Positions 29,326-54,774 of a stretch of 64,000 nt of DNA are shown here, piece by piece (the stretch's first letter is position 1; each line of letters starts with the position of its first letter). The position numbers were made by a program, and so were the translations under genes. Under the pieces are notes generated by a model that worked only from the letters and a program-made list of their open reading frames with translations, did not search any database and was not told where the DNA came from. Location: the NCBI RefSeq assembly GCF_058153355.1, contig NZ_CM177019.1. One strand, written 5' to 3'.

Positions 29326-29964
29326 ATGAGTTTATTTGATAAAAAGCATCTGGTTTCCCCCGCCGATGCCCTGCCTGGACGTAACACCCCGATGCCCGTA
29401 GCCACGCTGCATGCGGTCAATGGTCACTCAATGACCAATGTACCTGACGGAATGGAGATTGCCATTTTTGCGATGGGTTGTTTCTGGGGTGTGGAGCGTC
29501 TGTTCTGGCAGCTACCCGGCGTTTACAGCACCGCCGCAGGTTACACCGGCGGATATACGCCAAACCCCACTTATCGGGAAGTGTGCTCCGGTGATACTGG
29601 TCATGCCGAAGCGGTGCGCATTGTTTACGATCCTTCCGTCATCAGCTATGAGCAGTTGCTACAAGTATTTTGGGAGAATCACGATCCCGCCCAGGGAATG
29701 CGTCAGGGCAATGACCACGGCACGCAGTATCGTTCAGCGATTTATCCGCTGACCCCAGAACAGGATGCCGCCGCTCGTGCCAGTCTGAAGCGTTTTCAGG
29801 CGGCGATGCTTGCCGCCGATGACGATCGTCACATCACCACGGAAATCGCTAACGCCTCACCATTTTATTATGCCGAAGATGACCACCAGCAATATCTGCA
29901 TAAAAACCCATATGGTTACTGTGGAATTGGCGGAATTGGCGTCTGTCTGCCGCCGGAAGCATAG
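29326..29964 (+). CDS. msrA: Peptide methionine sulfoxide reductase MsrA
   Basis: 212-aa product from ATG 29326; active-site GCFWG motif. Confidence 0.95.
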
Positions 29965-30010
29965 CGTTACGGTTACAAACTCAGATTGTTGATAAAGTGA
30001 GCTTTGTTTA

Positions 30011-30110
30011 TGCCGGATGCGGCGTAAACGCCTTGCCAGGCCTACAAAACCCTCAAAATTCAATGTATTGCAGAGACTTCGTAGGCCTGAACAGCATAGC
30101 GCATCAGGCA
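30011..30110. repeat. REP/BIME cluster downstream of msrA
   Basis: tgccggatgcggcgtaaacgccttgccaggcctaca ... cgtaggcctgaacagcatagcgcatcaggca. Confidence 0.65.
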
Positions 30111-30286
30111 GTTTTGCATTTATCAGTCGTCTGAATTTTAACCCTCTGGCGACTTTACAGTACCTTACGCTATACTAGCCACTGAAAATGCCGGTTCACT
30201 TTCTTCGAATCGGCTTTCAATGTGTATTTCACACAAATTAATCAACTTCCCCTTCCGAGGATCTGGCCTGAAAGGTCGGATAAGAT

Positions 30287-31630
30287 ATGTTAAACAGTAT
30301 TTTTGTCATACTCTGCTTGATCGCTGTAAGTGCGTTCTTCTCGATGTCCGAGATCTCACTTGCCGCTTCACGCAAAATCAAACTAAAACTGCTGGCTGAT
30401 GAAGGCAATATAAATGCCCAACGCGTTCTGAATATGCAAGAAAATCCTGGCATGTTCTTTACCGTGGTACAAATCGGTCTTAACGCAGTGGCGATTCTCG
30501 GCGGTATTGTCGGTGATGCGGCGTTTTCTCCAGCTTTTCACAGCCTGTTCTCCCGCTATATGTCGGCGGAACTCTCTGAGCAACTGAGCTTTATTCTCTC
30601 TTTCTCGTTAGTAACTGGCATGTTTATCCTGTTTGCGGATTTAACTCCGAAACGCATCGGTATGATTGCGCCAGAAGCGGTGGCTTTGCGTATCATCAAC
30701 CCGATGCGCTTCTGCCTGTACGTTTGCACCCCGTTGGTGTGGTTCTTCAACGGCCTGGCGAACATGATCTTCCGTATCTTTAAACTGCCAATGGTACGTA
30801 AAGATGACATCACTTCTGATGACATCTATGCAGTTGTGGAAGCAGGTGCACTGGCAGGCGTGTTACGTAAACAGGAACACGAGCTGATAGAAAACGTCTT
30901 TGAGCTGGAATCCCGTACCGTTCCGTCGTCAATGACACCGCGTGAAAACGTGATTTGGTTTGATCTCCACGAAGATGAGCAAAGTCTGAAGAATAAGGTG
31001 GCGGAACATCCGCACTCGAAATTTCTCGTCTGTAATGAAGATATTGACCACATCATCGGCTATGTCGATTCTAAAGACCTGCTGAACCGCGTGCTGGCTA
31101 ACCAAAGCCTGGCACTGAACAGCGGCGTACAAATTCGCAACACACTGATTGTGCCGGATACATTAACCCTTTCAGAGGCATTGGAAAGTTTTAAAACTGC
31201 GGGTGAAGACTTCGCGGTGATCATGAACGAGTACGCGCTGGTCGTGGGGATCATCACCCTCAACGACGTAATGACCACACTAATGGGCGATCTGGTCGGT
31301 CAGGGACTGGAAGAGCAGATTGTCGCCCGTGATGAGAACTCATGGTTGATTGATGGCGGCACCCCGATTGACGACGTAATGCGTGTGCTGGATATTGATG
31401 AGTTCCCGCAGTCAGGCAACTACGAAACCATCGGCGGCTTTATGATGTTTATGCTGCGTAAAATCCCGAAACGCACCGACTCGGTGAAATTCGCCGGCTA
31501 CAAATTTGAAGTGGTGGATATCGATAACTACCGCATCGACCAGTTGCTGGTAACGCGGATCGACAGCAAGGCCACCGCCCTTTCGCCCAAACTGCCTGAC
31601 GTTAAAGATAAAGAAGAAAACGTCGCGTAA
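30287..31630 (+). CDS. ytfL: Inner-membrane protein YtfL (CNNM/HlyC-CorC family: DUF21 + CBS pair + CorC domain)
   Basis: 447-aa product MLNSIFVILCLIAVSAFFSMSEISLAASRKIKLKLLADEGN... Confidence 0.93.
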   Translation: MLNSIFVILCLIAVSAFFSMSEISLAASRKIKLKLLADEGNINAQRVLNMQENPGMFFTVVQIGLNAVAILGGIVGDAAFSPAFHSLFSRYMSAELSEQLSFILSFSLVTGMFILFADLTPKRIGMIAPEAVALRIINPMRFCLYVCTPLVWFFNGLANMIFRIFKLPMVRKDDITSDDIYAVVEAGALAGVLRKQEHELIENVFELESRTVPSSMTPRENVIWFDLHEDEQSLKNKVAEHPHSKFLVCNEDIDHIIGYVDSKDLLNRVLANQSLALNSGVQIRNTLIVPDTLTLSEALESFKTAGEDFAVIMNEYALVVGIITLNDVMTTLMGDLVGQGLEEQIVARDENSWLIDGGTPIDDVMRVLDIDEFPQSGNYETIGGFMMFMLRKIPKRTDSVKFAGYKFEVVDIDNYRIDQLLVTRIDSKATALSPKLPDVKDKEENVA

Positions 31631-31645
31631 CCCCAAGAAACATCA

Positions 31646-31675
31646 ACGGCTCCTGAATCAGGAGCCGTCTTATTT
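31646..31675. terminator. Bidirectional rho-independent terminator between ytfL and ytfK
   Basis: acggctcctg-aat-caggagccgt stem followed by a T-rich tract. Confidence 0.6.
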
Positions 31676-31692
31676 ACTGCATAGCACTTTGG

Positions 31693-31899
31693 TTAAGCCA
31701 TCTCTGTTTGCAGACGCATAACCTGACGGTTAACTTCGGACATCACTGACAAATGCAGCTTATCCTTCACTTTTGGGATAAGAATCTTACCCTTATCAAA
31801 TTCAAAAGCGCCAACGTCCTTGATGTATAACCGTCCACGGAACAGGATCTTTACGTACTTCGCCACCTGCAGTGGGTTGTACCGTTGGAAAATTTTCAT
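31693..31899 (-). CDS. ytfK: Small protein YtfK (DUF1107)
   Basis: 68-aa product [38 protein letters not shown]... with AGGAGA RBS; the ORF-track N-terminal extension is rejected. Confidence 0.85.
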
Positions 31900-32224
31900 T
31901 GTTATCTCCTGCTGAGTATTACGCCTTTGCGGTGCCACAATCGGCCCAACTATTATGAGGCGCAAATTTTAATGCTTAGTGACTATAGACTATCCGGGTA
32001 ATGTTTCCACCGCGTATAACTTTTTTTACCTAAAGGTTACAATTATTCAGAATTATCTTTTTACCGAAGCGCGGTATTCAGTATAAGCATTCATTTTTCA
32101 TATGATTTGTGCGCTTGACCGCAAACTGGCATCACACTTGCGGGAAATTCGATAAATAGCACATATGATTAAAAGTCAGACCCCAAGTGGTCGGATCACC
32201 TGCATATCATAAGAAGGATACACC

Positions 32225-32779
32225 ATGACCCTACGTAAGATTCTGGCACTCACCTGCCTGCTGTTGCCGATGATGGCTTCCGCACATCAGTTTGAAACCG
32301 GTCAACGAGTGCCACCGATAGGCATTACCGATCGGGGCGAGTTGGTGCTTGATAAAGATCAGTTTAGCTACAAAACCTGGAACAGCGCGCAGTTAGTGGG
32401 AAAAGTGCGAGTACTGCAACATATTGCTGGTCGCACCTCTGCAAAAGAGAAAAACGCGACGCTGATTGAAGCGATTAAATCAGCAAAGTTACCGCATGAT
32501 CGTTACCAGACCACCACCATTGTGAACACCGACGACGCGATTCCGGGTTCTGGCATGTTTGTGCGCAGCAGTCTGGAGAGTAATAAAAAGCTTTATCCCT
32601 GGTCGCAGTTTATTGTCGATAGCAATGGCGTCGCCCGCGGTGCCTGGCAGCTAGATGAAGAAAGTTCCGCTGTAGCGGTGCTGGACAAAGACGGTCGAGT
32701 GCAATGGGCCAAAGACGGTGCGCTCACTCAGGAAGAGGTGCAGCAAGTGATGAACCTGCTGCAAAAGTTGCTCAAATAA
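32225..32779 (+). CDS. ytfJ: Periplasmic protein YtfJ
   Basis: 184-aa product with signal peptide MTLRKILALTCLLLPMMASA. Confidence 0.9.
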   Translation: MTLRKILALTCLLLPMMASAHQFETGQRVPPIGITDRGELVLDKDQFSYKTWNSAQLVGKVRVLQHIAGRTSAKEKNATLIEAIKSAKLPHDRYQTTTIVNTDDAIPGSGMFVRSSLESNKKLYPWSQFIVDSNGVARGAWQLDEESSAVAVLDKDGRVQWAKDGALTQEEVQQVMNLLQKLLK

Positions 32780-32811
32780 TGTTAATAACATAAATTCTGG
32801 AAAAATAAATT

Positions 32812-32840
32812 TCCCCTATCGATATATATGGGATAGGGGA
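32812..32840. terminator. Hairpin between convergent ytfJ and ytfI (weak terminator candidate)
   Basis: tcccctatc-N11-gatagggga stem. Confidence 0.4.
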
Positions 32841-32879
32841 ATTAAGTCTCTGAGTTTTTACGCCGAACTCATACTAGTA

Positions 32880-33803
32880 TCAATAACCATTATTCGCGTT
32901 TAACGGTTTTACCTCTTTTTTAAACGCTTCAATGGTAGATTTATATTTCTCGGAAATCTTTTCTTCGGTATAATTACCATTTGCGGCCAGATTTGCACTT
33001 ATAATCGCTTCCACTTGCTCGGTTATTTCCACTTGTTGGCAACCTGCATTAACCAGAAAATTATAAATAAGAGAGTAATCTTCACCCTGCAAAAAAATAT
33101 AAGAGCCAGTTCGAAATTCCTCATCCCCTCCATAGATTTTAAGAGCAAAGCCCAAAGATTCTATGACCATGGCATAATTTCTATTATTTATTTCCTCGCA
33201 AAAATACCATCCTTCACATTCTTTAATGCTACCTTCTGGCCCTTCAAGTTCAAATTTACCCCGTTTTAATTTGCTTACTACATTCTCCAAATAAGCAGAA
33301 TCGTAAGATAAGTTACCCGCCGCCTTCCGAAAATAACCGTTAATCCTTTCAGGTATGTCAGACTGTTTTTTCTGCAAAATATCATAGGCATACAATCTTC
33401 TATTTTGTGCTAGTGGAAATTCACGGTTTTTAAAGTCTATAAATGAGTTATACTCATTTATTGTTATAGGGATTTCTTCGTATTCAAATCCAGTGCCTCG
33501 CAATGTCATTGTATATTCGGCACCGTTATCTTTAAGGCGGAAGCTGATAAGAAAATTATCCATGGAGTGAACGGTTTCATCTTTTGATGAAAGCACCTGA
33601 TAACTATTTTTATCAATCTGTGTTGCTCTAAGAAAGAACTCCCTTAAAATTAACAGACTATCATAATTCGAAATCCAATCCCTTTTCTTAAATGCATGCT
33701 GAATATTATTAAAGAAATTATTTGAATGTATTTTTGTATGCGATGACTTTACAAATAACTCCACTGCACCAAAAAAATTATTGTGTCTGATCTTGGGTAA
33801 CAT
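32880..33803 (-). CDS. ytfI: Hypothetical protein, YtfI-like (function unknown)
   Basis: 307-aa AT-rich ORF with ATG start and no recognisable domain; position between ytfJ and cysQ corresponds to K-12 ytfI (from memory). Confidence 0.6.
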   Translation of the reverse strand: MLPKIRHNNFFGAVELFVKSSHTKIHSNNFFNNIQHAFKKRDWISNYDSLLILREFFLRATQIDKNSYQVLSSKDETVHSMDNFLISFRLKDNGAEYTMTLRGTGFEYEEIPITINEYNSFIDFKNREFPLAQNRRLYAYDILQKKQSDIPERINGYFRKAAGNLSYDSAYLENVVSKLKRGKFELEGPEGSIKECEGWYFCEEINNRNYAMVIESLGFALKIYGGDEEFRTGSYIFLQGEDYSLIYNFLVNAGCQQVEITEQVEAIISANLAANGNYTEEKISEKYKSTIEAFKKEVKPLNANNGY

Positions 33804-34015
33804 ATGACAACCTTATTATATTTGGTTATTCTATGTCGCCATTAAATATCTTATTAAAGAAGTAAACTATCAAAAAAAGCTCATTATTAAAACATAACTT
33901 ATTAACGTTAGAATATTTACACTTTAAATACAATCCCTTTATATCTATAACTTTTTAGGTTGGAAACAAATCAGGATGGCAGAATCAGGAAATACACTGT
34001 TTCTGCCATATATAT

Positions 34016-34756
34016 TTAATAAATAGAGACTCTGAACCCAGGATTCAGGAACGACTCGCGCGGGGTATAATCCAGCGGTTTACCCTGCCAGTCGTGAACG
34101 TGCGCTCCGGCCGCTGCCGCAACTGCGTGACCGGCAGCGGTATCCCAAATATTAGTTGGCCCGAAACGCGGATAGAGTTGAGCCTGCCCTTCCGCCACCA
34201 GGCAGAATTTCAGCGAAGAGCCGATAGACGTGGTTTGATGTTCGCCAAGCTGTTGCAGATACTCTTTCAGCTCCGCATCCGCATGGGAACGGCTGATCAC
34301 CACCAGCGGCGGGCGCGCATCGCGGACCTGAATCTGCTTGCGTACACCGCACTCTTCTTTCCAGGCTTTGCCGTCTGCCGCGCTGTACATTACGTTCATT
34401 ACCGGCGCATACACCACACCTAAAATCGGTTTGCCGTGGTCGATGAGCGCAATATTAACGGTGAATTCACCATTACGTTTAATAAACTCTTTAGTACCAT
34501 CCAGCGGGTCTACCAGCCAGTAACGCTGCCAGTGTTGACGGACTTCCCAACCGGGAGGATCTTCTTCAGAAAGGACCGGAATATCCGGTGTCAGCGTACG
34601 TAAACCGTCCATGATAACGGTGTGTGCGGCAATATCCGCTGCCGTTACCGGAGAATTGTCCGCTTTGCTGACGACGTCCATCGGTTTCGTCCCGTCGTAG
34701 ACCTGCATAATGGCATCGCCTGCATTCCGTGCAAGCTGGCATACTTGATCTAACAT
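34016..34756 (-). CDS. cysQ: 3'(2'),5'-bisphosphate nucleotidase CysQ
   Basis: 246-aa inositol-monophosphatase-family protein ([22 protein letters not shown]... with DPLDGT motif). Confidence 0.95.
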
Positions 34757-34945
34757 TTCTCCACCTCGTCTCTGTGAGCGGTGTTAACTTGTTGTTTTAC
34801 TTATACCCTATCGTTAAAGAATGCGCCAACTGTGATAGTGTCATCATTTTCAAAGCGTTAAATTGTGGCATTCTTCACTGTTCTAAAAGTAAGAGGTTTA
34901 TTCTCCCTTTTCTTTCGAATTCCCGATGATAAAAGGATGTCCCTG

Positions 34946-36889
34946 ATGATTAAGTTTAGCGCAACGCTCCTGGCCACGCTGATTGCCGCGAGTGTGAATG
35001 CAGCGACGGTCGATCTGCGTATCATGGAAACCACTGATTTGCATAGCAACATGATGGATTTCGATTATTACAAAGACACCGCCACGGAAAAATTCGGACT
35101 GGTACGTACGGCAAGCCTGATTAACGATGCCCGCAATGAAGTGAAAAACAGCGTACTGGTCGATAATGGCGATTTGATTCAGGGGAGTCCGCTGGCCGAT
35201 TACATGTCGGCGAAAGGATTAAAAGCCGGAGATATTCACCCTGTCTATAAGGCATTGAATACGCTGGACTATACCGTCGGCACACTCGGTAACCACGAGT
35301 TTAACTACGGTCTGGATTACCTGAAAAATGCACTGGCAGGAGCGAAATTCCCTTATGTAAACGCCAACGTCATTGACGCTAAAACCAAACAGCCCATGTT
35401 TACACCGTATTTGATTAAAGACACCGAAGTGATCGATAAAGACGGAAAAAAACAGACGCTGAAGATTGGCTATATTGGCGTCGTACCGCCGCAGATTATG
35501 GGATGGGATAAAGCTAATTTATCTGGCAAAGTCACCGTTAACGATATAACGGAAACTGTGCGCAAGTACGTACCTGAAATGCGCGAGAAAGGTGCCGATC
35601 TCGTTGTCGTTTTGGCGCATTCTGGTCTCTCTGCCGATCCGTATAAAGTGATGGCAGAAAACTCAGTTTATTATCTCAGTGAAATTCCGGGCGTTGACGC
35701 CATTATGTTTGGCCATGCTCACGCCGTCTTCCCGAGTAAAGATTTTGCGAATATCAAAGGGGCTGATATCGCCAAAGGCACGCTGAACGGCGTTCCGGCG
35801 GTAATGCCGGGCATGTGGGGCGATCATCTCGGCGTGGTCGATCTGCAACTCAATAATGACAGCGGAAAATGGCAGGTGACGCAGGCGAAAGCGGAAGCAC
35901 GGCCAATTTACGATATCGCCAATAAAAAATCCCTCGCGGCGGAAGACAGCAAGCTGGTAGAAACACTTAAGGCCGATCACGAGGCCACACGCCAGTTTGT
36001 CAGCAAACCAATCGGTAAATCTGCCGACAATATGTATAGCTATTTGGCGCTGGTGCAGGACGATCCGACCGTGCAGGTGGTGAATAATGCACAAAAAGCG
36101 TATGTCGAACATTACATTCAGGGCGATCCGGATCTGGCAAAACTGCCGGTGCTTTCAGCTGCCGCACCGTTTAAAGTCGGTGGTCGCAAAAATGATCCGG
36201 CAAGCTATGTGGAGGTGGAAAAAGGCCAATTAACCTTCCGTAACGCCGCCGATCTTTACCTCTATCCCAATACGCTGATTGTGGTGAAAGCCAGCGGTAA
36301 AGAGGTGAAAGAGTGGCTGGAATGCTCCGCCGGACAGTTTAACCAGATTGATCCTAACAGCACGAAACCACAGTCACTGATCAACTGGGATGGTTTCCGC
36401 ACCTATAACTTTGACGTCATTGATGGTGTGAATTATCAGATTGATGTTACTCAGCCCGCTCGCTATGACGGCGAGTGCCAGGTGGTTAATGCCAATGCGG
36501 AAAGGATTAAGAACCTGACCTTTAACGGCAAGCCGCTTGATCCGAACGCGATGTTCCTCGTTGCCACCAATAACTATCGCGCTTACGGCGGCAAATTTGC
36601 AGGTACGGGCGATAGCCATATCGCTTTTGCTTCACCGGATGAGAACCGCTCGGTGCTGGCAGCGTGGATTGCAGATGAGTCGAAGCGTGCGGGAGAAATT
36701 CACCCGGCGGCAGATAACAACTGGCGTTTAGCACCGATTCCCGGCGATAAGAAACTGGATATCCGTTTCGAAACCTCTCCGTCAGATAAAGCCGCAGCGT
36801 TTATTAAAGAGAAAGGGCAGTATCCGATGAATAAAGTCGCGACCGATGATATCGGCTTTGCGATTTATCAGGTGGATTTGAGTAAGTAA
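34946..36889 (+). CDS. cpdB: 2',3'-cyclic-nucleotide 2'-phosphodiesterase / 3'-nucleotidase CpdB
   Basis: 647-aa product from ATG 34946 with signal peptide ([19 protein letters not shown]) and calcineurin-like metallophosphatase motifs. Confidence 0.95.
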
Positions 36890-36914
36890 AACACTTTTCC
36901 CGTCTATAGATATG

Positions 36915-37012
36915 AACCGCATCCGGCATTTATTGGCGGATGCGGTGCTGCTGCATCTTATCCGCCCTACAGGTCATGAACCGTAGGCCGAATAAGCGCA
37001 GCGCATCCGGCT
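36915..37012. repeat. REP/BIME cluster between cpdB and ytfH
   Basis: Multiple gcatccggc / gccggatgcg REP half-sites. Confidence 0.65.
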
Positions 37013-37013
37013 G

Positions 37014-37394
37014 TTATGCCGCACGTTCATCCCGCACTGCCAACACCTCAGGCAAATTCAACTCAATCCAGTCCGCCAGTGCAGCAACCTTTTCGCTCAC
37101 CTGCTCGCCCAGCGGCGTGAGGCTGTATTCCACATGCGGCGGCACCACCGGATAAGAGATACGGTTAAGAAACCCATCCTGCTCTAACGCCTGTAACGAC
37201 TGCGCAAGCATCTTTTCACTCACCCCACCCATCTTGCGGCGCAGGTCGCTAAAACGGTGCGTACCTTCGCGAAGCGCGACCAGAATCAATACCCCCCAAC
37301 GACTGGTGACGTGTTTCAACACCTCGCGCGACGGGCACTGTTCGGCGAAGAGGTTACCCTCTTTCAGTTGTTGCGACAGGCTAGCCTGGCTCAT
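37014..37394 (-). CDS. ytfH: HxlR-family transcriptional regulator YtfH
   Basis: 126-aa winged-helix protein (MSQASLSQQLKEGNLFAEQCPSREVLKHVTSRWGVLILVALREGTHRFSDL...). Confidence 0.9.
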   Translation of the reverse strand: MSQASLSQQLKEGNLFAEQCPSREVLKHVTSRWGVLILVALREGTHRFSDLRRKMGGVSEKMLAQSLQALEQDGFLNRISYPVVPPHVEYSLTPLGEQVSEKVAALADWIELNLPEVLAVRDERAA

Positions 37395-39522: not shown

Positions 39523-40185
39523 ATGGCTTATCGCGACCAACCTTTAGGTGAACTGGCGCTCTCTATTCCTCGCGCTTCGGCTCTGTTTCGTCAATATGAT
39601 ATGGATTACTGCTGCGGCGGTAAGCAAACGCTGGCGCGTGCGGCGGCACGTAAAGAACTGGATGTTGACGTCATTGAAGCCGAACTGGCAAAGCTTGCTG
39701 AACAACCGATTGAGAAAGACTGGCGTAGCGCCCCACTGGCGGAAATCATCGACCATATCATCGTGCGCTACCACGATCGTCACCGTGAACAACTGCCGGA
39801 ACTGATTCTGCAAGCGACTAAAGTCGAACGCGTTCACGCCGACAAACCGAGCGTGCCAAAAGGGCTGACAAAATACCTGACCATGCTGCATGAAGAGCTT
39901 TCCAGCCACATGATGAAAGAAGAGCAGATCCTCTTCCCGATGATCAAACAAGGCATGGGTAGCCAGGCGATGGGGCCAATTAGCGTAATGGAAAGCGAGC
40001 ACGATGAAGCGGGTGAACTGCTGGAAGTAATCAAACACACTACCAATAACGTCACACCGCCGCCGGAAGCCTGCACCACCTGGAAAGCGATGTATAACGG
40101 TATTAATGAACTGATTGATGACCTGATGGAGCACATCAGTCTGGAAAACAATGTGCTGTTCCCGCGCGCGCTGGCGGGTGAGTGA
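39523..40185 (+). CDS. ytfE: Iron-sulfur cluster repair di-iron protein YtfE (RIC)
   Basis: 220-aa product [38 protein letters not shown]... Confidence 0.95.
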
Positions 40186-40193
40186 TTCGTTCG

Positions 40194-40226
40194 ATCAACG
40201 ATCCTGACATGTACAGGATCGTTGAT
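40194..40226. other. 13-bp perfect inverted repeat (hairpin) at the boundary between ytfE and the accessory operon
   Basis: atcaacgatcctg-acatgta-caggatcgttgat; no flanking T-tract. Confidence 0.4.
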
Positions 40227-40237
40227 TGTTAAGAGGT

Positions 40238-41731
40238 TCAGTCTTTCAATGGACGTAATTCATTGTTGTAACTGGTGTAACTGCCTTCAACGGTAAGTAG
40301 ATTGCCGTTTTCATCAAGATGCGCCGCATTGAGTTGTCGAGTTTCATTACGCCGCTTCGCATCACGTACCAGCCCATCGCCTACGTAATAAATATAGTGG
40401 TCATCATGAGCAAAGGTATCTGATAATTGACCATTGGCGTATTTAAACCACGTCCATTGGCCTTTCAGTTCAAATTGCTCAACCGTGTTTTCATCAATAA
40501 AATACGTAAAGCGATCGTCATGTGCTAAATAATTTAATGGTGTGCCATCGTGGCTTTTATACCACTGCCATTGCCCATTAATATCAAAAATAGTCACATC
40601 ATCGCTCGCAATGAAATAAAATTTATTCCCTATAATATTAACGCCTTCATGTAATTCTTGTTGTGGGTCGGGTAAATGAATAACCGACAGTGTTTTTTCG
40701 ACCCCAGAAACATACTTCACCAGATAGAGCGAATCTTTATATTGCGCCACATTCTTCGTCAGCGGGCGAAAATATTCCGGATCAACATCAGGAATGGTCG
40801 CAACCCGGCAGTCATTGGCACGCCAGGAAACGTCACGCGTCATCCATGTTACTTTATCCCGCTGTAGGTCAAACGTATTTCGGCACTCTTTACCGAACGC
40901 ATAACGTTTCTCCCCGTCCTTATCGCGATAAATCAGCAGGGAACCGGCTATCCAGCGCACAATATGAAAGGTGTCCGGATCGGCGTTGATGGAATCTCCG
41001 TTCACAAAGACCTGCGATTTTGTCCGCCAGATTGTATCCCAGGGTGCGGGATGCCCCCAATTTTCACAAGTGTTTGGCAAATAAAGAATATTCCGTTGGG
41101 CCCAGGGTTTAATGTCAAGAATAGAATATCCTTGCGTACTACCCAACCAGCGTCCCTGAAAGTAAAGATTGCGACGATCTTTCAGTACATCCGCGGAATC
41201 AATTAAATTCATCCTCCCCCCCACCTGTTGCAGCGAATCCATATCGACCTGCTTTTCGCCGTGATTATCATCCGTGCGTTCGCCATCAAAATAGAGGCTG
41301 TCTTTATCAGCGGCAAAACGCCCCCATGCGCGGAATGTTGCGGCATCGACTTTCGGTGTTCCCGGCGGGTTCTGAACTATTTTCCCTGCCCATAAAATAT
41401 GGCGACCATCGGTCAACCAGTCGAAACGCCAACTACCGTTAGTTCTGATATTAGTGCCAGCATCTACCTGAACATAATCATTATTGATATCATCAGGAGA
41501 ATCATATTTATCATCAGTGCCGTTGGGTACGCGGCGAAGTTGCTTAAACTTCACCTGCGATAAATGAATATCCGGAAAATAGAGTCCGTAACCATCACTA
41601 TCTTCAACGATATATTTTGTTCCTTGCCCCCACGGCTGGTAGTAAAACGCAGCAGCAGGCACACCGGAGCAGGCTAGTGAGGAGGTTGAAAATAAAGCCA
41701 GTGCGAGACAAACGGGTTTAATTGGCAACAT
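40238..41731 (-). CDS. Secreted repeat protein, paralogue 1 (DKNYY-like repeats; function unknown)
   Basis: 497-aa product with signal peptide MLPIKPVCLALALFSTSSLA; repeated D-K-x-x-[LIV]-Y-[FY] and A-D-x-x-T/S-F motifs (e.g. VDAATFRAWGRFAADKDSLYFDG); AGGA RBS. Confidence 0.75.
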   Translation of the reverse strand: MLPIKPVCLALALFSTSSLACSGVPAAAFYYQPWGQGTKYIVEDSDGYGLYFPDIHLSQVKFKQLRRVPNGTDDKYDSPDDINNDYVQVDAGTNIRTNGSWRFDWLTDGRHILWAGKIVQNPPGTPKVDAATFRAWGRFAADKDSLYFDGERTDDNHGEKQVDMDSLQQVGGRMNLIDSADVLKDRRNLYFQGRWLGSTQGYSILDIKPWAQRNILYLPNTCENWGHPAPWDTIWRTKSQVFVNGDSINADPDTFHIVRWIAGSLLIYRDKDGEKRYAFGKECRNTFDLQRDKVTWMTRDVSWRANDCRVATIPDVDPEYFRPLTKNVAQYKDSLYLVKYVSGVEKTLSVIHLPDPQQELHEGVNIIGNKFYFIASDDVTIFDINGQWQWYKSHDGTPLNYLAHDDRFTYFIDENTVEQFELKGQWTWFKYANGQLSDTFAHDDHYIYYVGDGLVRDAKRRNETRQLNAAHLDENGNLLTVEGSYTSYNNELRPLKD

Positions 41732-41763
41732 AGCATCATCCTGAAGCTGTTAGCGTGAAGAGG

Positions 41764-42921
41764 TTATTTAAATAAGGGTTTAAGACCGCTCGGGGGTTGC
41801 TTCACCGATGACCAACCTCCCTTACCTAAGTTATAACGCAGCCATTCACCTTGTTGGGCGTGCTCTTTCCCAATTCCAGTCGCTTGTTGAGTGTAAAGCT
41901 GCCCGTCTGTTGATATAAACGTGTTAGTTAATCCCCAACTACCACCTGCTTCAAGTGAGTCGGTGAGATCCTCTGGCTTGAGATTAATCAACTCCCCTTC
42001 GCCCAGGGCGTTGGTTGTTACTTTATAAATTTGGTTCTTATATAAACCGGTATTCCGAACAAACAGATAAAAATATTCCGGATCAACTCCCGCCAGCGTT
42101 TCATAAACACAATCACTACCCGCTGGCGTTGCTTCTTGTTTGAGCCAGGACACAGTCTTCAAACCAATATTAAATGACGCACAACTGTGACTAATATCCT
42201 CCAACTTATAGTCATGCTCACCGCTTTTATCGCGATAAACCAACCGTTCGCCAGGCATCCAACGTTTAATCTGAAAAGTTTTGCGATCGGCGGGCAGTGG
42301 CTTGCCATTAACGATCACCTGCGAATTTGTCAGCACAACAAATTGCAGGGCGGAATCATGCCGCACGATTTGAAATCCATCGGCATGACCCAACCAGCGC
42401 CCTTTATGCCAGAGGCCATTTTTATCACGCAGTAAATTCCAGATGTCCGTCTCTTCCAGCGTTGACATATCCACCTGCTTATCACCGCTATTATCATCGG
42501 TACGCTGGCCGTCAAAATAGATACTGCGTTTATCGGCAGCGAAAGCGCCGAATGCCTGAAAACTGGCAGCGTCGACTTTAGGTTTACCGGGGGGATTTTT
42601 CAGGACTTTGCCTGCCCAAATAACAAAGCGTCCATCGGTGAGCCAGGAATGCTGGCAATCCCCCTTATCATCGCAATCGAACTTATCGGGATTAAAATCG
42701 GACAGTAACCGGCAATCTTGCTTATTAGCTAAATTGGCAATGCGCCAGAGGCGGGAAAAATTAACGTCTGGTAATTCGGAGAGGATCTCATCTTCTTTTC
42801 CCTTCTGTTCGGCAACGTAAACCGTGCCTTTATCATGCTGGCGGTAATAAAAATCCGCGCCCCAGGAAGGTAAAATGGAGAGAGGTAATGCGGCGATTAA
42901 TAACCAACTGCGCTTAACCAT
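41764..42921 (-). CDS. Secreted repeat protein, paralogue 2 (DKNYY-like repeats; function unknown)
   Basis: 385-aa product from ATG 42921 with signal peptide MVKRSWLLIAALPLSILPSWGA; shares long identical or similar blocks with paralogue 1 (WLTDGRxxxWAGKxxxNPPGxPKVDAAxFxAxGxFAADKxSxYFDGxRTDDNxGxKQVDM). The ORF-track N-terminal extension (to 43080) overlapping cycA is rejected. Confidence 0.7.
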   Translation of the reverse strand: MVKRSWLLIAALPLSILPSWGADFYYRQHDKGTVYVAEQKGKEDEILSELPDVNFSRLWRIANLANKQDCRLLSDFNPDKFDCDDKGDCQHSWLTDGRFVIWAGKVLKNPPGKPKVDAASFQAFGAFAADKRSIYFDGQRTDDNSGDKQVDMSTLEETDIWNLLRDKNGLWHKGRWLGHADGFQIVRHDSALQFVVLTNSQVIVNGKPLPADRKTFQIKRWMPGERLVYRDKSGEHDYKLEDISHSCASFNIGLKTVSWLKQEATPAGSDCVYETLAGVDPEYFYLFVRNTGLYKNQIYKVTTNALGEGELINLKPEDLTDSLEAGGSWGLTNTFISTDGQLYTQQATGIGKEHAQQGEWLRYNLGKGGWSSVKQPPSGLKPLFK

Positions 42922-43013
42922 AGTGAACTCTGCAACGAGTGGCAAAGATCCACGGTAAGCTCGCGCCTGAGGGCTGTCTATGATGGTAGATTTTTTTAGG
43001 AATATATAAAGAC

Positions 43014-43035
43014 AAAGGCACCCGCAGGTGCCTTT
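43014..43035 (-). terminator. Rho-independent terminator downstream of cycA
   Basis: aaaggcacc-cgca-ggtgccttt stem with flanking T/A tracts, 20 nt after the cycA stop. Confidence 0.55.
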
Positions 43036-43054
43036 CAGAGTTATAAACGCGGCA

Positions 43055-44458
43055 TTACTTCGCCATGCGTTTTTTACCAATAAACAACCAGCCCAACCCC
43101 AGCGCGATAAACCACAGCGGGGTAACTATCAGCGCCTGGCGAGTGTCATCTTCCAGTGTCAGCAGCACGACCACGAACACAAAGAACGCCATACATACCC
43201 AGCACATCAGCTTGCCGAGCGGCATCTTGTAGATAGACTTCTCATGCAGGTGCGGACGCTGTTTGCGATACACCAGGTATGAGCAAAGGATAATCGTCCA
43301 GACGAACATAAACAGAATCGCGGAAACAGTCGTGATCATCGTGAACGCGCCAATTACACTTGGATTCACATACAACATCACCACGCCGCCAAGCAGACAG
43401 ATACAAGAGAAGGTCAGCCCTTTCGCGGGTACGGCGCGCTTAGAAAGTTTAGCGAACGCTTTCGGCGCAACACCTTCCTGGGCCAGACCAAACAGCATAC
43501 GGCTGGTAGAGAAGACGCCGCTGTTAGCGGAAGACGCCGCAGAGGTCAGCACCACAAAGTTGATTACGCTGGCAGCCGCAGGCAAACCCACCAACACAAA
43601 CAATTCAACAAACGGGCTTTTCTCCGGGACTACTGAACTCCACGGCGTCACGGACATAATCACAATCAGCGCGAAGACGTAGAACATAATGATACGGATC
43701 GGAATGGAGTTAATCGCACGTGGCAGTGATTTCTCCGGATCTTTCGTTTCCGCAGCGGTTGTACCGACCAGCTCAATCCCCACGAAAGCGAAAACCGCTA
43801 TCTGGAATCCGGCAAAGAAGCCACTTAAACCTTTCGGGAACCAGCCGCCGTCATTCCACAAATGCGCGAATGACGCTTCCACACCGGTCGGTGACTGAAA
43901 GTGCATCGCCACCATGACCAGGCCGACGACAATCAGTGACACGATGGCGACAATTTTGATCATCGCAAACCAGAACTCCATCTCACCGAACATTTTCACG
44001 GTGGCGAGGTTAAGCGTCAGCAGCAGCACTATCACCGCCAGCGAGGCGACCCAGTCGGAGAGATCGGGGAACCAGAACTGAGCATAGGCAGTGATGGCCA
44101 CCACGTCCGCCATACCGGTAACCACCCAGCAGAACCAGTAGGTCCAGCCAGTGAAATATCCCGCCCATGGCCCCAGTAAATCGGAAGCGAAGTCACTAAA
44201 AGATTTGTATTCCAGATTCGAAAGCAGCAATTCCCCCATTGCCCGCATCACGAAAAAGAGCATAAAACCGATGATCATATAAACGAAGATGATCGACGGT
44301 CCGGCAAGGCTGATTGTTTTACCGGACCCCATAAACAACCCCGTACCAATGGCCCCACCAATGGCAATAAGCTGAATATGTCGGTTTGTGAGATTGCGCC
44401 GTAGCGACTGTTCAGCCGGAGCCTGATCATCGGCAACGACTTTTACCTGATCTACCAT
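43055..44458 (-). CDS. cycA: D-serine/D-alanine/glycine:H+ symporter CycA (APC family)
   Basis: 467-aa product MVDQVKVVADDQAPAEQSLRRNLTNRHIQLIAIGGAIGTGLFMGSG... Confidence 0.95.
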   Translation of the reverse strand: MVDQVKVVADDQAPAEQSLRRNLTNRHIQLIAIGGAIGTGLFMGSGKTISLAGPSIIFVYMIIGFMLFFVMRAMGELLLSNLEYKSFSDFASDLLGPWAGYFTGWTYWFCWVVTGMADVVAITAYAQFWFPDLSDWVASLAVIVLLLTLNLATVKMFGEMEFWFAMIKIVAIVSLIVVGLVMVAMHFQSPTGVEASFAHLWNDGGWFPKGLSGFFAGFQIAVFAFVGIELVGTTAAETKDPEKSLPRAINSIPIRIIMFYVFALIVIMSVTPWSSVVPEKSPFVELFVLVGLPAAASVINFVVLTSAASSANSGVFSTSRMLFGLAQEGVAPKAFAKLSKRAVPAKGLTFSCICLLGGVVMLYVNPSVIGAFTMITTVSAILFMFVWTIILCSYLVYRKQRPHLHEKSIYKMPLGKLMCWVCMAFFVFVVVLLTLEDDTRQALIVTPLWFIALGLGWLFIGKKRMAK

Positions 44459-44766
44459 GTTTTTTTCTTCCTGTACCTGTCTGTGTTGTTCAGGCTCTGC
44501 GGCCTTTAGTCAGTCTATGATACGACGAATCTGTATCGGGACTCATCGATATTAGGTAACAATACGCGGGATGAATACTAAGATTTAGATCTAATGTTAA
44601 TTTTATGTTTAAAGTGAGTGTCATATCACGGTGATAACGCGAAACAGCTCACAAAAATACACGCTTACGTGGTCTTTGCAACACAAAATAGCGCCATTTG
44701 GCAAACTGAAGGGTTTATTGCTGAATGCCTGCTCCCCTCTGGCTCGAGGGGAACAGAATGCGCTGC

Positions 44767-45387
44767 TTAGAGGATTTCCAGCAGTTCGACTTCAAACACC
44801 AGGGTGCTGAACGGAGGGATGGACGCGCCTGCGCCACGCTCGCCATATGCCAGTTCCTGCGGGATAGTCAGTTCCCATTTAGAACCTACCGGCATCAGAG
44901 TCAGTGCTTCAATCCAGCCAGGGATCACGCCGTTAACCGGGAATTCAGCTGGCTCGCCACGGGCAACAGAGCTGTCAAACACAGTGCCGTCGATCAGTTT
45001 ACCGGTGTAATGAACACGAACGCGGTCAGTGCGTGCCGGAATTGCGCCTTCCCCCTGATTGATCACGCGGAATTGCAGGCCAGATTCGGTGCTATTCACA
45101 CCTTCTTTTTTGGCGTTTTCTTCCAGGTATTTCACACCTTCAGCAGCCATCGCCTGGAAACGCTGACGACGAACGGCATCGGCGCGTTCGTGGATTTCAC
45201 GCAGCGCGCGGTGCACCACATCAACCGGAACAGCCGGATGTTTGCCTTCCAGCGCATCGGCAATGCCTGCAACCAGTGCTTCTGGCAGCAGCCCTTCCAG
45301 GCCAGATTCACTCAGTTGTTGCCCTACCTGCAAACCAATGCCGTAGCTTGCTTGCGCTTCGATGGTGTCAAAAGTTGGGGTGGTCAT
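44767..45387 (-). CDS. fklB: FKBP-type peptidyl-prolyl cis-trans isomerase FklB
   Basis: 206-aa product from ATG 45387 ([25 protein letters not shown]...); FKBP domain at the C-terminus. Confidence 0.95.
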
Positions 45388-45604
45388 CGTATTTCCTTTC
45401 TTAGGGTATAAAGTAGCGGGCAGCATATCAGCCACACTTCTTTGGGTAAAACTTTGTCGCGGGAATGATGACAAATCCCGGGGAAAAAGAAACAATAGCA
45501 ATATCCCGTATGAATATAATAAAGGCGGGTTTACCACGGACATCATAGCGTTAGCTTATTCATAGGCTATGATTGAGGAACAAGACGCGGAGCAGGAGGA
45601 AACC

Positions 45605-46243
45605 ATGCCCGGGCGCTTTGAACTAAAACCAACCCTGGAGAAAGTCTGGCACGCGCCGGACAATTTTCGCTTCATGGACCCGCTACCGCCGATGCATCGT
45701 CGGGGGATCATTATTGCCGCTATTGTATTGGTGGTCGGATTTCTACTCCCGTCTGATGATACGCCAAACGCGCCGGTGGTGACGCGTGAAGCACAGTTAG
45801 ATATTCAGTCGCAATCACAACCGCCGACAGAAGAACAGCTGCGGGCGCAATTAGTCACACCACAAAATGATCCTGATCAGGTGGCTCCGGTCGCTCCAGA
45901 ACCGATACAGGAAGGCCAACCGGAAGAGCAGCCGCAAACCTCGCAAGTGCAACCTTTCCAGCCAGATAGCGGAATTGACAATCAATGGCGCTCTTATCGT
46001 GTCGAACCCGGTAAAACAATGGCGCAGCTGTTCCGCGACCACGGACTGCCCGCTACCGATGTCTATGCAATGGCGCAGGTAGAAGGCGCGGATAAGCCAC
46101 TGAGTAATTTGCAAAATGGGCAGATGGTGAAAATCCGCCAGAACGCCAGCGGCGTGGTGACGGGCTTAACCATTGATACGGGAAATAATCAACAGGTCCT
46201 GTTTACCCGCCAGCCGGATGGCAGTTTTATTCGCGCGCGGTAG
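45605..46243 (+). CDS. ytfB: Cell-division protein YtfB (OapA/LysM-like)
   Basis: 212-aa product from ATG 45605 ([42 protein letters not shown]...). Confidence 0.9.
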
Positions 46244-46874
46244 ATGAAGGGTCAACCAGAAGCCAGCTAAGGATCGTCTCTTTGATGACCTTACGCCTGG
46301 CTTCCAGTGCCTGCGGTGAAACCATACTGATGTGATAAACCAGGCCAAGCGTATGTTGGTTGATCAAATAATATCCTCCAAGAGCAGCAATATTAATATT
46401 CACCTGCAACGGGTCGATATCTGGCTTAAAAATATTGCGCCGTTTGCCTTCAGCTAATAATGACTCCATTAACTGTAAGTGTGCGTGGTTAATTTCTAAA
46501 AGGCGCTGTGATTTTGCATAATGCACCCCTTTACTCTGGTTTTCACTATGCACAATTTTTAAAAACCAGGGGTTAGCAATGTAATAATCCCAGGTGAAAT
46601 CGATAATTTTCTCAATGGCTTTTTGTGGCGGAAGACCTGAGAAATCAAGGGATTTTTCTTTTTGCCGAATATCATTCCAGGTATATTCCAGCACTTCGAT
46701 AAATAAATTTTCTTTATTACCAAAGTGATGATAAACCGTCTGTTTACTGCACTCCGCGGCCTTGACGATATTATCGACTCTGGCCCCTTCGTAACCATAT
46801 TCGGCAAATTCATTAACCGCACATAACAACAGCTTTTCCTTCAGGCTTTGTACGTTGCTGGTATCAAGATACAT
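46227..46874 (-). CDS. TetR/AcrR-family transcriptional regulator (divergent from the catabolic operon)
   Basis: N-terminal TetR helix-turn-helix ([44 protein letters not shown]); start placed at ATG 46874 (the ORF track begins at a GTG at 46934). Confidence 0.75.
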
Positions 46875-46996
46875 TCCGCTTCCCCACGTCTTCTTCGTGA
46901 TGACTATCTTAACCCGATTTGTTAGAAGCTCCACTAAAATGGCTAAAAACTCGCAATTTCATCGGGTTATCAAATGCTCTGTGATCATTATCGCAT

Positions 46997-47018
46997 ATCA
47001 ACCAACTAGATGGTTGAT
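46997..47018. promoter_or_regulatory. Perfect 8-bp inverted repeat ATCAACCA-N6-TGGTTGAT in the divergent promoter region (candidate TetR operator)
   Basis: atcaaccaactagatggttgat, between the regulator gene and the first gene of the operon. Confidence 0.4.
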
Positions 47019-47085
47019 CTTTCTTGCCACACATTGCAAGCTAATCGTCACTTAAGGAAATAATATTCAAAAAGAGGGTTATTGT

Positions 47086-47877
47086 ATGAAGTCAACACGT
47101 CCTGTTGCTGTCATCACTGGAGCCGCACGTGGTATTGGAAAGGGCTGTGCACTGGAACTTGCGCGTGGCGGATTTAATCTGCTGATTAATGATCGTCCGG
47201 ATGCCGACAGCGTAGAAAAATTACATGCCACACAACAAGAATGTCTGGCGGAAGGCGTGGAAGTCATTTGCTTCCCTGCCGATGTCGGCGATCTCTCCTT
47301 GCATGAAGAGATGCTCGACGCGGCGCAAAACCAGTGGGGGCGTCTGGACTGCCTGCTCAATAACGCCGGGATTTCAGTGAAAAAACGCGGTGACCTCCTC
47401 GACCTCGAACCAGACAGCTTCGACCAAAACATTGCCATTAACACCCGTGCGCCGTTCTTCCTTGCTCAGGCATTCAGTAAGCGATTACTGGCACAGCCGA
47501 AACCGGAAGCAGAACTGCCGCACCGCTCGATTATTTTTGTCAGTTCCATAAACGCCATCATGCTGGCGATGAATCGCGGCGAATATACCATTGCCAAAAC
47601 TGCCGTCTCCGCCGCAGCTCGCCTGTTTGCCGCTCGCCTTTGCAATGAACAAATTGGCGTTTATGAAGTGCGCCCTGGCCTAATCAAAACCGATATGACC
47701 ATTCCGGCAACGGCTTATTACGACGAACTGATTGCTAAGGGGTTAGTGCCGTGGGGACGTTGGGGTTATCCGGCTGATATTGCCTCAACGGTCCGCGCGA
47801 TGGCGGAAGGCAAACTGATTTACACCTGTGGTCAGGCGGTCGCCATCGACGGCGGCTTAAGTATGCCGCGCTTCTGA
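47086..47877 (+). CDS. Short-chain dehydrogenase/reductase (SDR) family oxidoreductase
   Basis: 263 aa; TGAARGIGKG cofactor motif, NNAG, catalytic YTIAK; RBS AGAGGG. Confidence 0.85.
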   Translation: MKSTRPVAVITGAARGIGKGCALELARGGFNLLINDRPDADSVEKLHATQQECLAEGVEVICFPADVGDLSLHEEMLDAAQNQWGRLDCLLNNAGISVKKRGDLLDLEPDSFDQNIAINTRAPFFLAQAFSKRLLAQPKPEAELPHRSIIFVSSINAIMLAMNRGEYTIAKTAVSAAARLFAARLCNEQIGVYEVRPGLIKTDMTIPATAYYDELIAKGLVPWGRWGYPADIASTVRAMAEGKLIYTCGQAVAIDGGLSMPRF

Positions 47878-47886
47878 GGCTGAATC

Positions 47887-48729
47887 ATGAGAGATCTGTT
47901 ACAACGCCCGGATTTATTCAGTATCAATACTGCGACACTGGGCTATAAAACACCGCTACCTGCCATTATTGATGCCTGCGCCGCACGCGGTATTGGCGCG
48001 ATTGCCCCCTGGCGCAGGGAGTTACAGGGTGAAGATCTCCAACAAATCGCCCGCCAGCTTGCTGCCAGTAACATGAGCGTTTCCGGTTTGTGCCGTAGCA
48101 CCTATTACACCGCGCCGACGCTGACGGAACGCAAACTGGCGATTGATGATAACCGCCGGGCGCTGGACGACGCCGCTGTACTGAACGCCGCCTGTTATAT
48201 GCAGGTGGTTGGCGGTCTGCCAATGGGAACAAAAGATCTGTACGAAGCGCGGGAACAGGTGAAACAAGGGATTCGCCAGTTGCTGCCACATTCGAAAGAT
48301 GTCGGCGTACCAATTGCGCTGGAGCCGCTACACCCGATGACCGCCGCCGATCGCTCTTGCCTGTGCACGTTACGTCAGGCGCTGGACTGGTGTGATGAAC
48401 TCGATCCCGATGGGGAGTTTGGCCTCGGCGTGGCGGTGGATGTTTATCACGTCTGGTGGGACCCGGATCTCGCCAGTCAGATCCTGCGTGCCGGAAAGCG
48501 CATCCTCGCGTTTCATGTTTCCGACTGGCTGGTGCCAACCACCGATTTAGTCAATGACCGGGGAATGCCGGGAGATGGCGTAATCAATATTCCGTCTATT
48601 CGTCGCCAGGTAGAAAATGCCGGATTTAACGGTGCTATTGAACTGGAAATATTCTCACCGTACTGGTGGCAAAAAGATATTAACAGCACACTGGATATTA
48701 GCGTCGATCGCATCGCGCATTATTGCTAA
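47887..48729 (+). CDS. Sugar-phosphate isomerase/epimerase-like TIM-barrel protein (xylose-isomerase-like fold)
   Basis: 280 aa; pattern typical of the AP-endonuclease-2/xylose-isomerase-like TIM-barrel family (family-level call only). Confidence 0.7.
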   Translation: MRDLLQRPDLFSINTATLGYKTPLPAIIDACAARGIGAIAPWRRELQGEDLQQIARQLAASNMSVSGLCRSTYYTAPTLTERKLAIDDNRRALDDAAVLNAACYMQVVGGLPMGTKDLYEAREQVKQGIRQLLPHSKDVGVPIALEPLHPMTAADRSCLCTLRQALDWCDELDPDGEFGLGVAVDVYHVWWDPDLASQILRAGKRILAFHVSDWLVPTTDLVNDRGMPGDGVINIPSIRRQVENAGFNGAIELEIFSPYWWQKDINSTLDISVDRIAHYC

Positions 48730-48732
48730 GGA

Positions 48733-49515: not shown

Positions 49516-49524
49516 GGAAATTGT

Positions 49525-53135: not shown

Positions 53136-53227
53136 TTTTCAATATTTACTCTGTACCTGATTTTTATTGCCTATTACATGGAAATACCAACAACCAGGGT
53201 TTATTAATATAATTAAAAGGTTTAAAA

Positions 53228-54505: not shown

Positions 54506-54520
54506 TTATTTTAAATAAAA

Positions 54521-54549
54521 ACGCTATAATTGAGGTTATGGCGTTTTTA
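54521..54549 (+). terminator. Rho-independent terminator after the MFS transporter gene
   Basis: acgctataa-ttgagg-ttatggcgt stem followed by ttttt. Confidence 0.5.
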
Positions 54550-54774
54550 AAGAAGCTTGAGTTATCGAACCTCGCTTACCAACGCGTTGTCAGTCATCTC
54601 CCCCCTCCCTGGTGCATCGTTATATCCGTGATGAGCGATTTTTGATATTAATATCTTTCACCATCCGCTATTTTCACCACTTCAGAAAACAAACTTATTT
54701 TTATTAATATCAATTCTTTTTCTTTGAACATTCAACTGCGATATTTGTAAAAATATTAAACAGGCAACAATAAA

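Follow-up and report, generated by a model that had tools for sequence, protein, structure and literature searches.

In a comparison of Escherichia coli strains by chromatin affinity purification sequencing (ChAP-seq), ytfI of K-12 is used to illustrate the binding of H-NS to a segment found in some strains only (Higashi et al., PMC4720273, S10 Fig legend). K-12 has the gene and SE11 and SE15 lack it, and H-NS binding in K-12 also covers cpdB, cysQ, ytfJ and ytfK, which are not bound in the two strains without ytfI. The same study found elevated nonsynonymous divergence (dN) to be a general trait of H-NS-bound genes (PMC4720273). Here we analyze a counterpart of this gene in a 64,000-nucleotide stretch of Escherichia DNA (NCBI RefSeq assembly GCF_058153355.1, contig NZ_CM177019.1), referred to below as the window. 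The open reading frame (ORF) under study lies on the minus strand at 32880..33803 and encodes 307 aa from an ATG start. A preliminary description had called it a strikingly AT-rich, ytfI-like gene flanked by hairpins, and had proposed that it is old, horizontally acquired and probably silenced by H-NS, with no recognizable domain. Following our analysis, we consider it likely that ytfI is an old, AT-rich orphan gene of the H-NS type, carried on an insertion between ytfJ and cysQ.

The segment that carries ytfI resembles the H-NS-bound acquired DNA of K-12, SE11 and SE15 in being AT-rich, lineage-restricted, inserted relative to outgroups and elevated in dN. It differs from that DNA in consisting of a single gene with no island, integrase or tRNA site, and in that binding by H-NS is here presumed. 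A second point of comparison is provided by the ORFans and taxonomically restricted genes of E. coli (PMC3514957, PMC2275313), with which ytfI shares its confinement to the genus, raised AT content, patchy distribution, fast evolution and ratio of nonsynonymous to synonymous divergence (omega) below 1. Relative to these genes, ytfI is long (307 aa), old (it occurs in cryptic clades, at synonymous divergences [dS] of up to 0.8) and not strain-specific. Phage "morons" are likewise self-contained units with a promoter-like site, a terminator hairpin and foreign composition; unlike them, ytfI does not lie in a prophage, and neither a tblastn search of 50,697 phage records nor a structure search of viral proteins returned a match to YtfI.

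Parts of this picture were already in print. As an annotated y-gene with strain-specific presence and H-NS binding, ytfI has been published, and finding it again carries little weight. What we add is the direction of the change (insertion, at a site where ytfJ and cysQ ancestrally overlapped by 11 bp), an age shared with cryptic clades and without amelioration of composition, constraint on the protein and on the 5' region, protein evolution at two speeds, and the independent use of the same junction in E. albertii. We regard ytfI as a clean, small model of a silenced orphan gene that has long persisted as a presence/absence polymorphism, with no new mechanism. Nothing in it should surprise a specialist, and the notable loose ends are the reuse of the junction in E. 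albertii and a hairpin that has stayed unchanged.

A ytfI allele at the ytfJ-cysQ junction

The ORF stands in the gene order msrA, paeA (ytfL), ytfK, ytfJ, ORF, cysQ, cpdB, ytfH, which matches the order in K-12. The features that define the locus are as follows.

32880..33803, minus strand: ytfI coding sequence, clade-I-type allele, 307 aa, with a conserved N-terminal half and a fast C-terminal half
32780..34015, no strand: AT-rich inserted segment of ~1.24 kb, 32.7% GC, between the ytfJ stop and the cysQ stop; missing from outgroups and from ~70% of E. coli
32225..32779, plus strand: ytfJ, left flank, in the 184-aa form ending LLQKLLK* that is specific to ytfI-carrying chromosomes
34016..34756, minus strand: cysQ, right flank, convergent with ytfJ, with its own hairpin in its final codons (34032-34048)

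The K-12 gene at the position of the ORF, ytfI (b4215; WP_000937655.1), is annotated as "protein YtfI" and is uncharacterized. Over 307 aligned codons the two are 86% identical in nucleotides and 77% in amino acids, and the flanks are 95 to 97% identical. Database clusters matched the window protein at 77 to 78% identity with 97% coverage (E = 1.5e-151), which amounts to full-length homology to K-12 YtfI, and the ORF has the position of an orthologue, between ytfJ and cysQ and transcribed in the same direction as cysQ. No match to YtfI was found among the Pfam and NCBIfam family models; both libraries apparently lack a model for the family, so this is no argument against orthology. The two alleles are alike in position, strand, AT-richness (36% GC in K-12 versus 34% in the window), flanking hairpins and promoter-like site, and they differ in length (312 aa in K-12 versus 307 aa) and in their C-terminal tails, which read ...KPLNANNGY in the window and ...LPVLVRRKNSET in K-12. 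The label "ytfI-like" was well chosen, as both identity and the shared ytfJ-cysQ position bear out.

An identical protein is recorded at NCBI as EGO8351922.1, a hypothetical protein of "E. coli," and the representative of the 90% cluster that holds the window protein comes from Escherichia sp. TW15838, which we take to be a cryptic clade I strain. A third allele, 69% identical in amino acids, likewise lies between ytfJ and cysQ in SCPM-O-B-8794, an Escherichia genome farther removed, in which the flanks of ytfI are ~89% identical to the window. Among 5426 complete E. coli genomes, the window-type allele (at least 95% identity) was found in 20 and the K-12 type (the 80 to 90% band) in 1600. Judged by these comparisons, the ORF is a divergent, cryptic-clade-I-type allele of the already catalogued ytfI.

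The genome itself can be placed in a similar way. Over positions 40000-52000 of the window, the best full-length identity to any of the 5426 genomes was 93.7%; given this low value and the TW15838-type protein, the window appears to derive from a cryptic, clade I-like Escherichia that falls just beyond typical E. coli. The same 12 kb encode an acyl-CoA transferase, an FAD oxidoreductase, a sugar-phosphate isomerase and cycA, among others, and only 256 of the genomes cover them to at least 80%, which marks part of the stretch as a variable island. One E. coli strain, E04 (NZ_CM143912.1), is 99.3 to 99.4% identical to the window over the msrA-cpdB locus (29800-37100) and may have imported that locus from the window's lineage by recombination.

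How ytfI came to lie between ytfJ and cysQ can be read from chromosomes that do not carry it. In E. coli B, Salmonella enterica, E. marmotae and E. fergusonii the site is empty, and a 185-aa ytfJ overlaps the convergent cysQ by 11 bp. YtfJ is 185 aa long in essentially all Enterobacteriaceae matches, and 184 aa long, ending in LLQKLLK*, in all three ytfI-carrying lineages. At empty sites the protein ends in ...LLHKL(I/L)(N/S)(K/R)*, where the residues after LLHKL vary: they are INK in E. coli B and LNK in E. marmotae, and the ending reads LLHKLLSK in Salmonella and LLHKLLSR in E. fergusonii. The His codon (CAT) in this ending is present at all empty sites and is replaced by Gln (CAA) in all ytfI-carrying alleles. 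The empty site in outgroups, together with the derived ytfJ end in every ytfI-carrying allele, sets the polarity of the event: on this alignment evidence the empty site is ancestral, and ytfI is carried on an insertion of ~1.24 kb at the point where the 3' ends of ytfJ and cysQ overlapped by 11 bp. The proposal of horizontal acquisition gains its support here, from the empty sites of Salmonella, E. marmotae, E. fergusonii and ytfI-less E. coli. We also considered the empty E. coli site as a deletion derivative of the occupied allele and rejected this, since the empty site keeps the 185-aa ytfJ end and the outgroup His codon; by the same alignment it is an allele of the ancestral type, found in the species alongside the occupied one. 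We conclude that the AT-rich segment was inserted in an ancestor that E. coli shares with at least two cryptic clades.

As to the manner of insertion, degenerate copies of the overlap sequence (...TTAATAAAT...) stand at both ends of the insert; given the AT-richness, they are not separable from chance or from selection on stop codons. Such end repeats would fit a target duplication that let ytfJ and cysQ keep their ends. Neither a recombinase gene nor terminal inverted repeats were found at the ytfI segment.

The junction has been used a second time. In E. albertii, exactly the same position holds another insert of 1.5 kb and 33% GC on the opposite strand, which encodes a 385-aa pentapeptide-repeat protein on the plus strand (L012:3292-4449; also L005:2733-3890, in our numbering of loci) and has no sequence similarity to the ytfI segment. 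Two RefSeq genomes filed as E. coli, SCPM-O-B-7615 and SCPM-O-B-9504, also carry the pentapeptide-repeat insert. The paeA gene of SCPM-O-B-7615 is 99.8% identical to that of E. albertii, and both genomes look mislabelled.

Composition, age and distribution of ytfI

The GC content is 34.3% in the ORF, 32.7% in the segment 32780-34015 and 25.9% in its 5' intergenic part, compared to 50.8% in the window; expressed as AT, the 1236-bp segment has 67% and its 5' region 74%, and the window has 49%. The ORF deviates from the window with a z score of -3.85, and the lowest-GC 924-bp intervals of the 64 kb fall in the ORF region (minimum 31.8%, starting at 33051). At third codon positions (GC3), ytfI has 0.31, compared to 0.55 to 0.59 for ytfJ, cysQ, paeA and cpdB. 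The ORF thus earned the words "strikingly AT-rich": its deviation from the surrounding DNA is large by both GC and codon analysis. Milder dips (0.37 to 0.40) occur elsewhere in the window, at 46500-47000, 53000-53500 and 54500-55000. The GC3 of ytfI stays at 0.30 to 0.33 in all three lineages, and in the window lineage changes from AT to GC equal those from GC to AT, at 24:24. The composition of ytfI is still foreign, with no amelioration toward that of the host.

The foreign composition does not reflect a recent arrival, because ytfI is as diverged as its neighbors. Between the window and K-12, dS was 0.34 for ytfI and 0.16 to 0.23 for ytfJ, cysQ and paeA; the corresponding values were 0.84 and 0.53 to 0.78 between the window and the third lineage, and 0.70 and 0.56 to 0.66 between K-12 and the third lineage. 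Since ytfI has a dS close to that of its flanks or somewhat higher, it has been at this locus since before the three lineages split. The preliminary description was right to call the gene old, in that its dS (0.34 to 0.84) matches or exceeds that of the flanking core genes (0.16 to 0.78) across three Escherichia lineages.

Over this time the reading frame has remained intact, at 304 to 312 aa in three lineages separated by a dS of 0.3 to 0.8. At the composition of the segment a stop is expected every ~12 codons (8% per codon), and an uninterrupted series of 307 sense codons has a probability of ~3e-12. When the 1236-bp segment was shuffled 2000 times, the longest run free of stops averaged 73 codons and never exceeded 180, compared to the observed 310. 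The ORF is a real gene and not a chance reading frame.

The protein it encodes has been under selection as well. Omega for ytfI was 0.39 between the window and K-12, 0.22 between the window and the third lineage, and 0.27 between K-12 and the third lineage. Given that the bootstrap upper bounds were all at most 0.58, YtfI is under purifying selection, although this selection is weak: omega of the flanks in the same pairs was 0.015 to 0.06, and dN of ytfI was 10 to 40 times that of the flanks. Constraint is unevenly spread along the protein, with an omega of ~0.1 to 0.2 over residues ~1-140 (~0.1 over residues 100-140) and of 0.3 to 0.9 over residues 141-307. No sliding window of YtfI had an omega above 1.

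We found ytfI in 1622 of the 5426 complete E. coli genomes (30%), a count on which megablast and sensitive blastn agree. The gene is dispensable, as ~70% of E. coli genomes do without it, and sensitive blastn detected neither paralogues nor a second family of ytfI in this set. Outside E. coli its range is narrow. Among 5.8 billion 90% clusters there were 17 matches, and all of those with a named source came from Escherichia or Shigella. Searched exhaustively with HMMER, 1.84 billion representatives yielded nothing but fragments and frameshifted members of the YtfI family, apart from one repetitive 587-aa protein (E = 5e-5), which we judged spurious. In a scan of 100,044 species genomes, ytfI was present only in SCPM-O-B-8794 (locus L007) and in one contig of a Collinsella sp. 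metagenome-assembled genome (MAG). That contig (JAIJJM010000759.1, locus L006) spans 1501 bp, is 87% identical to the ytfJ-ytfI-cysQ locus of E. coli, and is probably contamination or mis-binning. Four "plasmid" matches proved to be two 4.9-Mb and two 655-kb replicons filed as plasmids, which are apparently chromosomal DNA. YtfI is a taxonomically restricted gene, confined to Escherichia and Shigella and with selection on its protein, and in both respects it behaves as an ORFan.

Such a narrow range raises the question of whether the frame arose de novo in AT-rich Escherichia DNA and not from a donor. This idea would account for the lack of any homologue in the 1.84 billion representatives, the 5.8 billion clusters, phages, plasmids and the 100,044 species genomes, and it would fit a predicted structure of low confidence, especially in the N-terminal half. 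The AlphaFold2 models were built with 8 closely related sequences, however, and a weak model is to be expected from so small an alignment. A 307-codon ORF in DNA of 33% GC is extremely improbable by chance. Moreover, the frame lies in an inserted piece of DNA that is already complete in the deepest lineage sampled, including its promoter-like site, Shine-Dalgarno sequence and terminator hairpins. We consider a de novo origin highly improbable and keep to acquisition of the segment as the origin of ytfI.

H-NS and the flanking hairpins

The segment has the marks of acquired, silenced DNA: AT content is high over several hundred base pairs, and the segment is absent from the orthologous site in relatives. 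Given that the window allele is as AT-rich as the K-12 orthologue and that the latter is bound by H-NS, silencing of the window allele by H-NS is probable. The earlier suggestion of silencing thus holds in part, as published H-NS binding supports it for the K-12 orthologue (PMC4720273) and AT-richness is what extends it to the window allele. Under our proposal, the segment would act as a nucleation site from which H-NS binding spreads onto the neighboring genes, and H-NS would keep ytfI off under laboratory conditions.

A number of points weigh against the reading of ytfI as an old orphan gene of the H-NS type. H-NS occupancy is known from the K-12 orthologue and is, like derepression, presumed for the window allele. 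The high-affinity H-NS motif TCGATAAATT, allowing at most one mismatch, does not occur in the segment. The literature we searched held no expression data for ytfI from hns mutants, and neither transcription nor protein data for ytfI were found. Promoter-like sites are not enriched in the segment (6 versus 5.6 in shuffles of the same composition). The AlphaFold2 model has a predicted local distance difference test (pLDDT) score of 48.5 at full length and of 63.4 over residues 146-307, and the functional role that we suggest below is a guess. Finally, many database entries are shortened, such as a 251-aa cluster with 729 members and fragments from Shigella, and in E. coli ETEC1738 (L003:1864-2943) an IS1 element has replaced ytfI together with the 3' end of ytfJ. 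Given the frequency of shortened forms and the IS1 replacement, selection on ytfI must be weak or conditional. At the ETEC1738 locus, the region upstream of ytfI is reduced to its final ~150 bp, in which the conserved hairpin is retained.

Taken further, these losses would make ytfI a decaying, non-functional relic that survives as H-NS renders it harmless. Its absence from ~70% of E. coli, the common shortened forms and the IS1 replacement are in line with decay, as are a dN 10 to 40 times that of the neighbors and the lack of a clear, specific phenotype in the papers found. Decay sits poorly with an ORF that is intact in three lineages, with an omega of 0.22 to 0.39 whose upper bounds do not exceed 0.58, and with the value of ~0.1 over residues 100-140. 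In addition, the 5' region has evolved ~3 times more slowly than synonymous sites, and a neutral ORF of 924 bp would not stay open when stops arise at 8% per codon. We therefore think it quite unlikely that ytfI is a relic and retain the reading of an orphan gene that is still maintained.

The following elements of the segment surround the coding sequence.

32811..32841, minus strand: candidate intrinsic terminator of ytfI, with a 10-bp GC-containing stem, an 11-nt loop and a U-rich tail
32851..32871, minus strand: small 6-bp hairpin directly after the ytfI stop codon
33804..33975, minus strand: presumed ytfI 5' regulatory region, ~26% GC, a likely H-NS nucleation zone
33810..33813, minus strand: Shine-Dalgarno-like AAGG, 6 nt before the ATG; AAGG in K-12 and GAGG in the third lineage in a three-way alignment
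33845..33873, minus strand: candidate sigma-70 promoter, TTGATA-17 nt-GATATT, a consensus match assigned by its conservation only
33976..34009, minus strand: hairpin between cysQ and the ytfI promoter region, part of the insert

The presence of hairpins on both sides of ytfI, as first described, is confirmed: both are real and fold better than shuffled sequence, with z scores of -2.3 to -4.5. The candidate terminator has perfect 10-nt arms (32811-32820 and 32832-32841) followed by AAUUUAUUUUU on the minus strand, and relative to K-12 its stem is conserved and its loop variable. It probably works in both directions, so that it would also serve ytfJ. Upstream of ytfI, the two hexamers of the candidate promoter and their spacing are kept in all three lineages (with AATATT in the third). 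In the 212-bp 5' region the three lineages are 0.12, 0.25 and 0.18 apart in Jukes-Cantor (JC) distance, about one-third of the synonymous divergence of ytfI. We infer promoter, ribosome-binding site and terminator roles for these elements from their sequences. In our model ytfI would form a single-gene transcription unit on the AT-rich segment, and the flanking hairpins would insulate it from convergent and read-through transcription.

The hairpin at 33976-34009 adjoins the cysQ stop. Its 13-nt arms (33976-33988 and 33997-34009) pair at nine positions in a row and, past a bulge of one base, at three more. All 34 nt, in the stem as in the loop, are the same in three lineages that are 0.3 to 0.8 apart at synonymous sites. 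The hairpin is a single-copy element, present in exactly those genomes that carry ytfI, and it is absent from viral contigs. Most likely it blocks read-through from cysQ into ytfI, although such a role does not account for the unchanged loop. A bolder interpretation would see the hairpin as a relic of delivery, the ytfJ/cysQ overlap as a recurrent landing site for AT-rich single-gene cassettes (ytfI and the pentapeptide gene of E. albertii), and YtfI as the founder of a new family with a conserved N-terminal activity module and a fast C-terminal recognition module, for instance a stress or defence factor. We regard this combination as rather improbable.

The conservation of noncoding parts also bears on whether the main role of the segment is cis-acting, in that it would space two overlapping genes and, through its terminators and an H-NS block, tune ytfJ, cysQ and cpdB, with the ORF being secondary. 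The dependence of H-NS binding over cpdB, cysQ, ytfJ and ytfK on the presence of ytfI in K-12 (PMC4720273) would agree with such a role, as would the identity of the 33976-34009 hairpin in three lineages and an intergenic region more conserved than synonymous sites. Purifying selection nevertheless acts on the amino acid sequence, and most E. coli and all outgroups do without the segment. A mainly cis-acting segment strikes us as very unlikely, and we continue to treat ytfI as a protein-coding orphan gene.

Hairpins also occur within the final codons of ytfJ (32739-32763) and cysQ (34032-34048). In genomes with the ancestral 11-bp overlap each of these would lie just past the stop of the other gene and could serve as its terminator. 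A search of 32000-35000 for known RNA families matched only the small RNA ES239 of Rfam (34823-34945, minus strand; 149 bits, E = 5e-30), which lies outside the ytfI feature, in the cysQ-cpdB intergenic region upstream of cysQ.

The YtfI protein and its possible role

YtfI is a 35.7-kDa protein with a pI of 5.7 and a grand average of hydropathy (GRAVY) of -0.52, values of a soluble protein. Asn, Glu, Ile, Lys, Phe and Tyr are abundant in it, which is what AT-rich DNA would be expected to give. Searches of Pfam, NCBIfam, PADLOC and PHROGs gave only matches below threshold, among them DUF4434 (E = 0.065) and phrog_3250 (E = 0.023). The only match in PADLOC-DB 2.0 was a Cas6b fragment (E = 0.011, 13.6 bits), and YtfI is not a known defence protein by this measure. 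LisH (PF08513) gave a weak match to a C-terminal helix in seven of the eight alleles; at 12.6 bits it falls short of the gathering cut-off of 21.6, and we do not assign the domain. A profile search of PDB sequences returned only nitrogenase (E = 0.9). In the AlphaFold2 model of the C-terminal 162 residues, a five-stranded antiparallel sheet is predicted along with one long helix and several others. The models had no significant structural neighbor in the PDB or among viral proteins, where Foldseek TM scores reached at most ~0.3.

The gene had been described as having no recognizable domain and a function that is unknown, and both statements stand: nothing exceeded threshold in Pfam, NCBIfam, PADLOC, PHROGs or PDB sequences, structure prediction assigned no fold, and no functional homologue emerged from any library searched. 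The contrast between the two halves of the protein could suggest an accessory conflict protein (an anti-phage factor, an immunity protein or inhibitor, or a secreted effector) with an activity in its N-terminal part and partner recognition in its C-terminal part. Such a protein would be expected to leave other traces, but there was no PADLOC or PHROG match above threshold, no partner gene, toxin or secretion system lies nearby, no window of the alignment has an omega above 1, and the fold matches are below significance on models of low confidence. We consider a conflict role unlikely. For the orphan gene as we read it, our guess would be a soluble, cytoplasmic protein of 36 kDa with a conserved N-terminal half and a fast alpha/beta C-terminal half, which, once silencing is lifted, may play an accessory part under certain conditions, either in tolerating stress or in interacting with a partner that varies.

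Apart from the H-NS study (PMC4720273), the E. coli papers we found under "ytfI" name it only in lists and screens, and a search for "b4215" gave nothing relevant. The ASKA clone of ytfI was among 23 with stronger tolerance to HOCl (PMC8228696), and the Keio ytfI mutant was scored "LS" in a screen for boric acid sensitivity (PMC11502571). The existence of this clone and this mutant implies that ytfI is dispensable and is not toxic when overexpressed. The gene has also been reported as a sigma-32 target by chromatin immunoprecipitation on microarrays (ChIP-chip), a result that was not reproduced (PMC2996942), and the revised genotype markers given for strain JM83 include it (PMC11148124).

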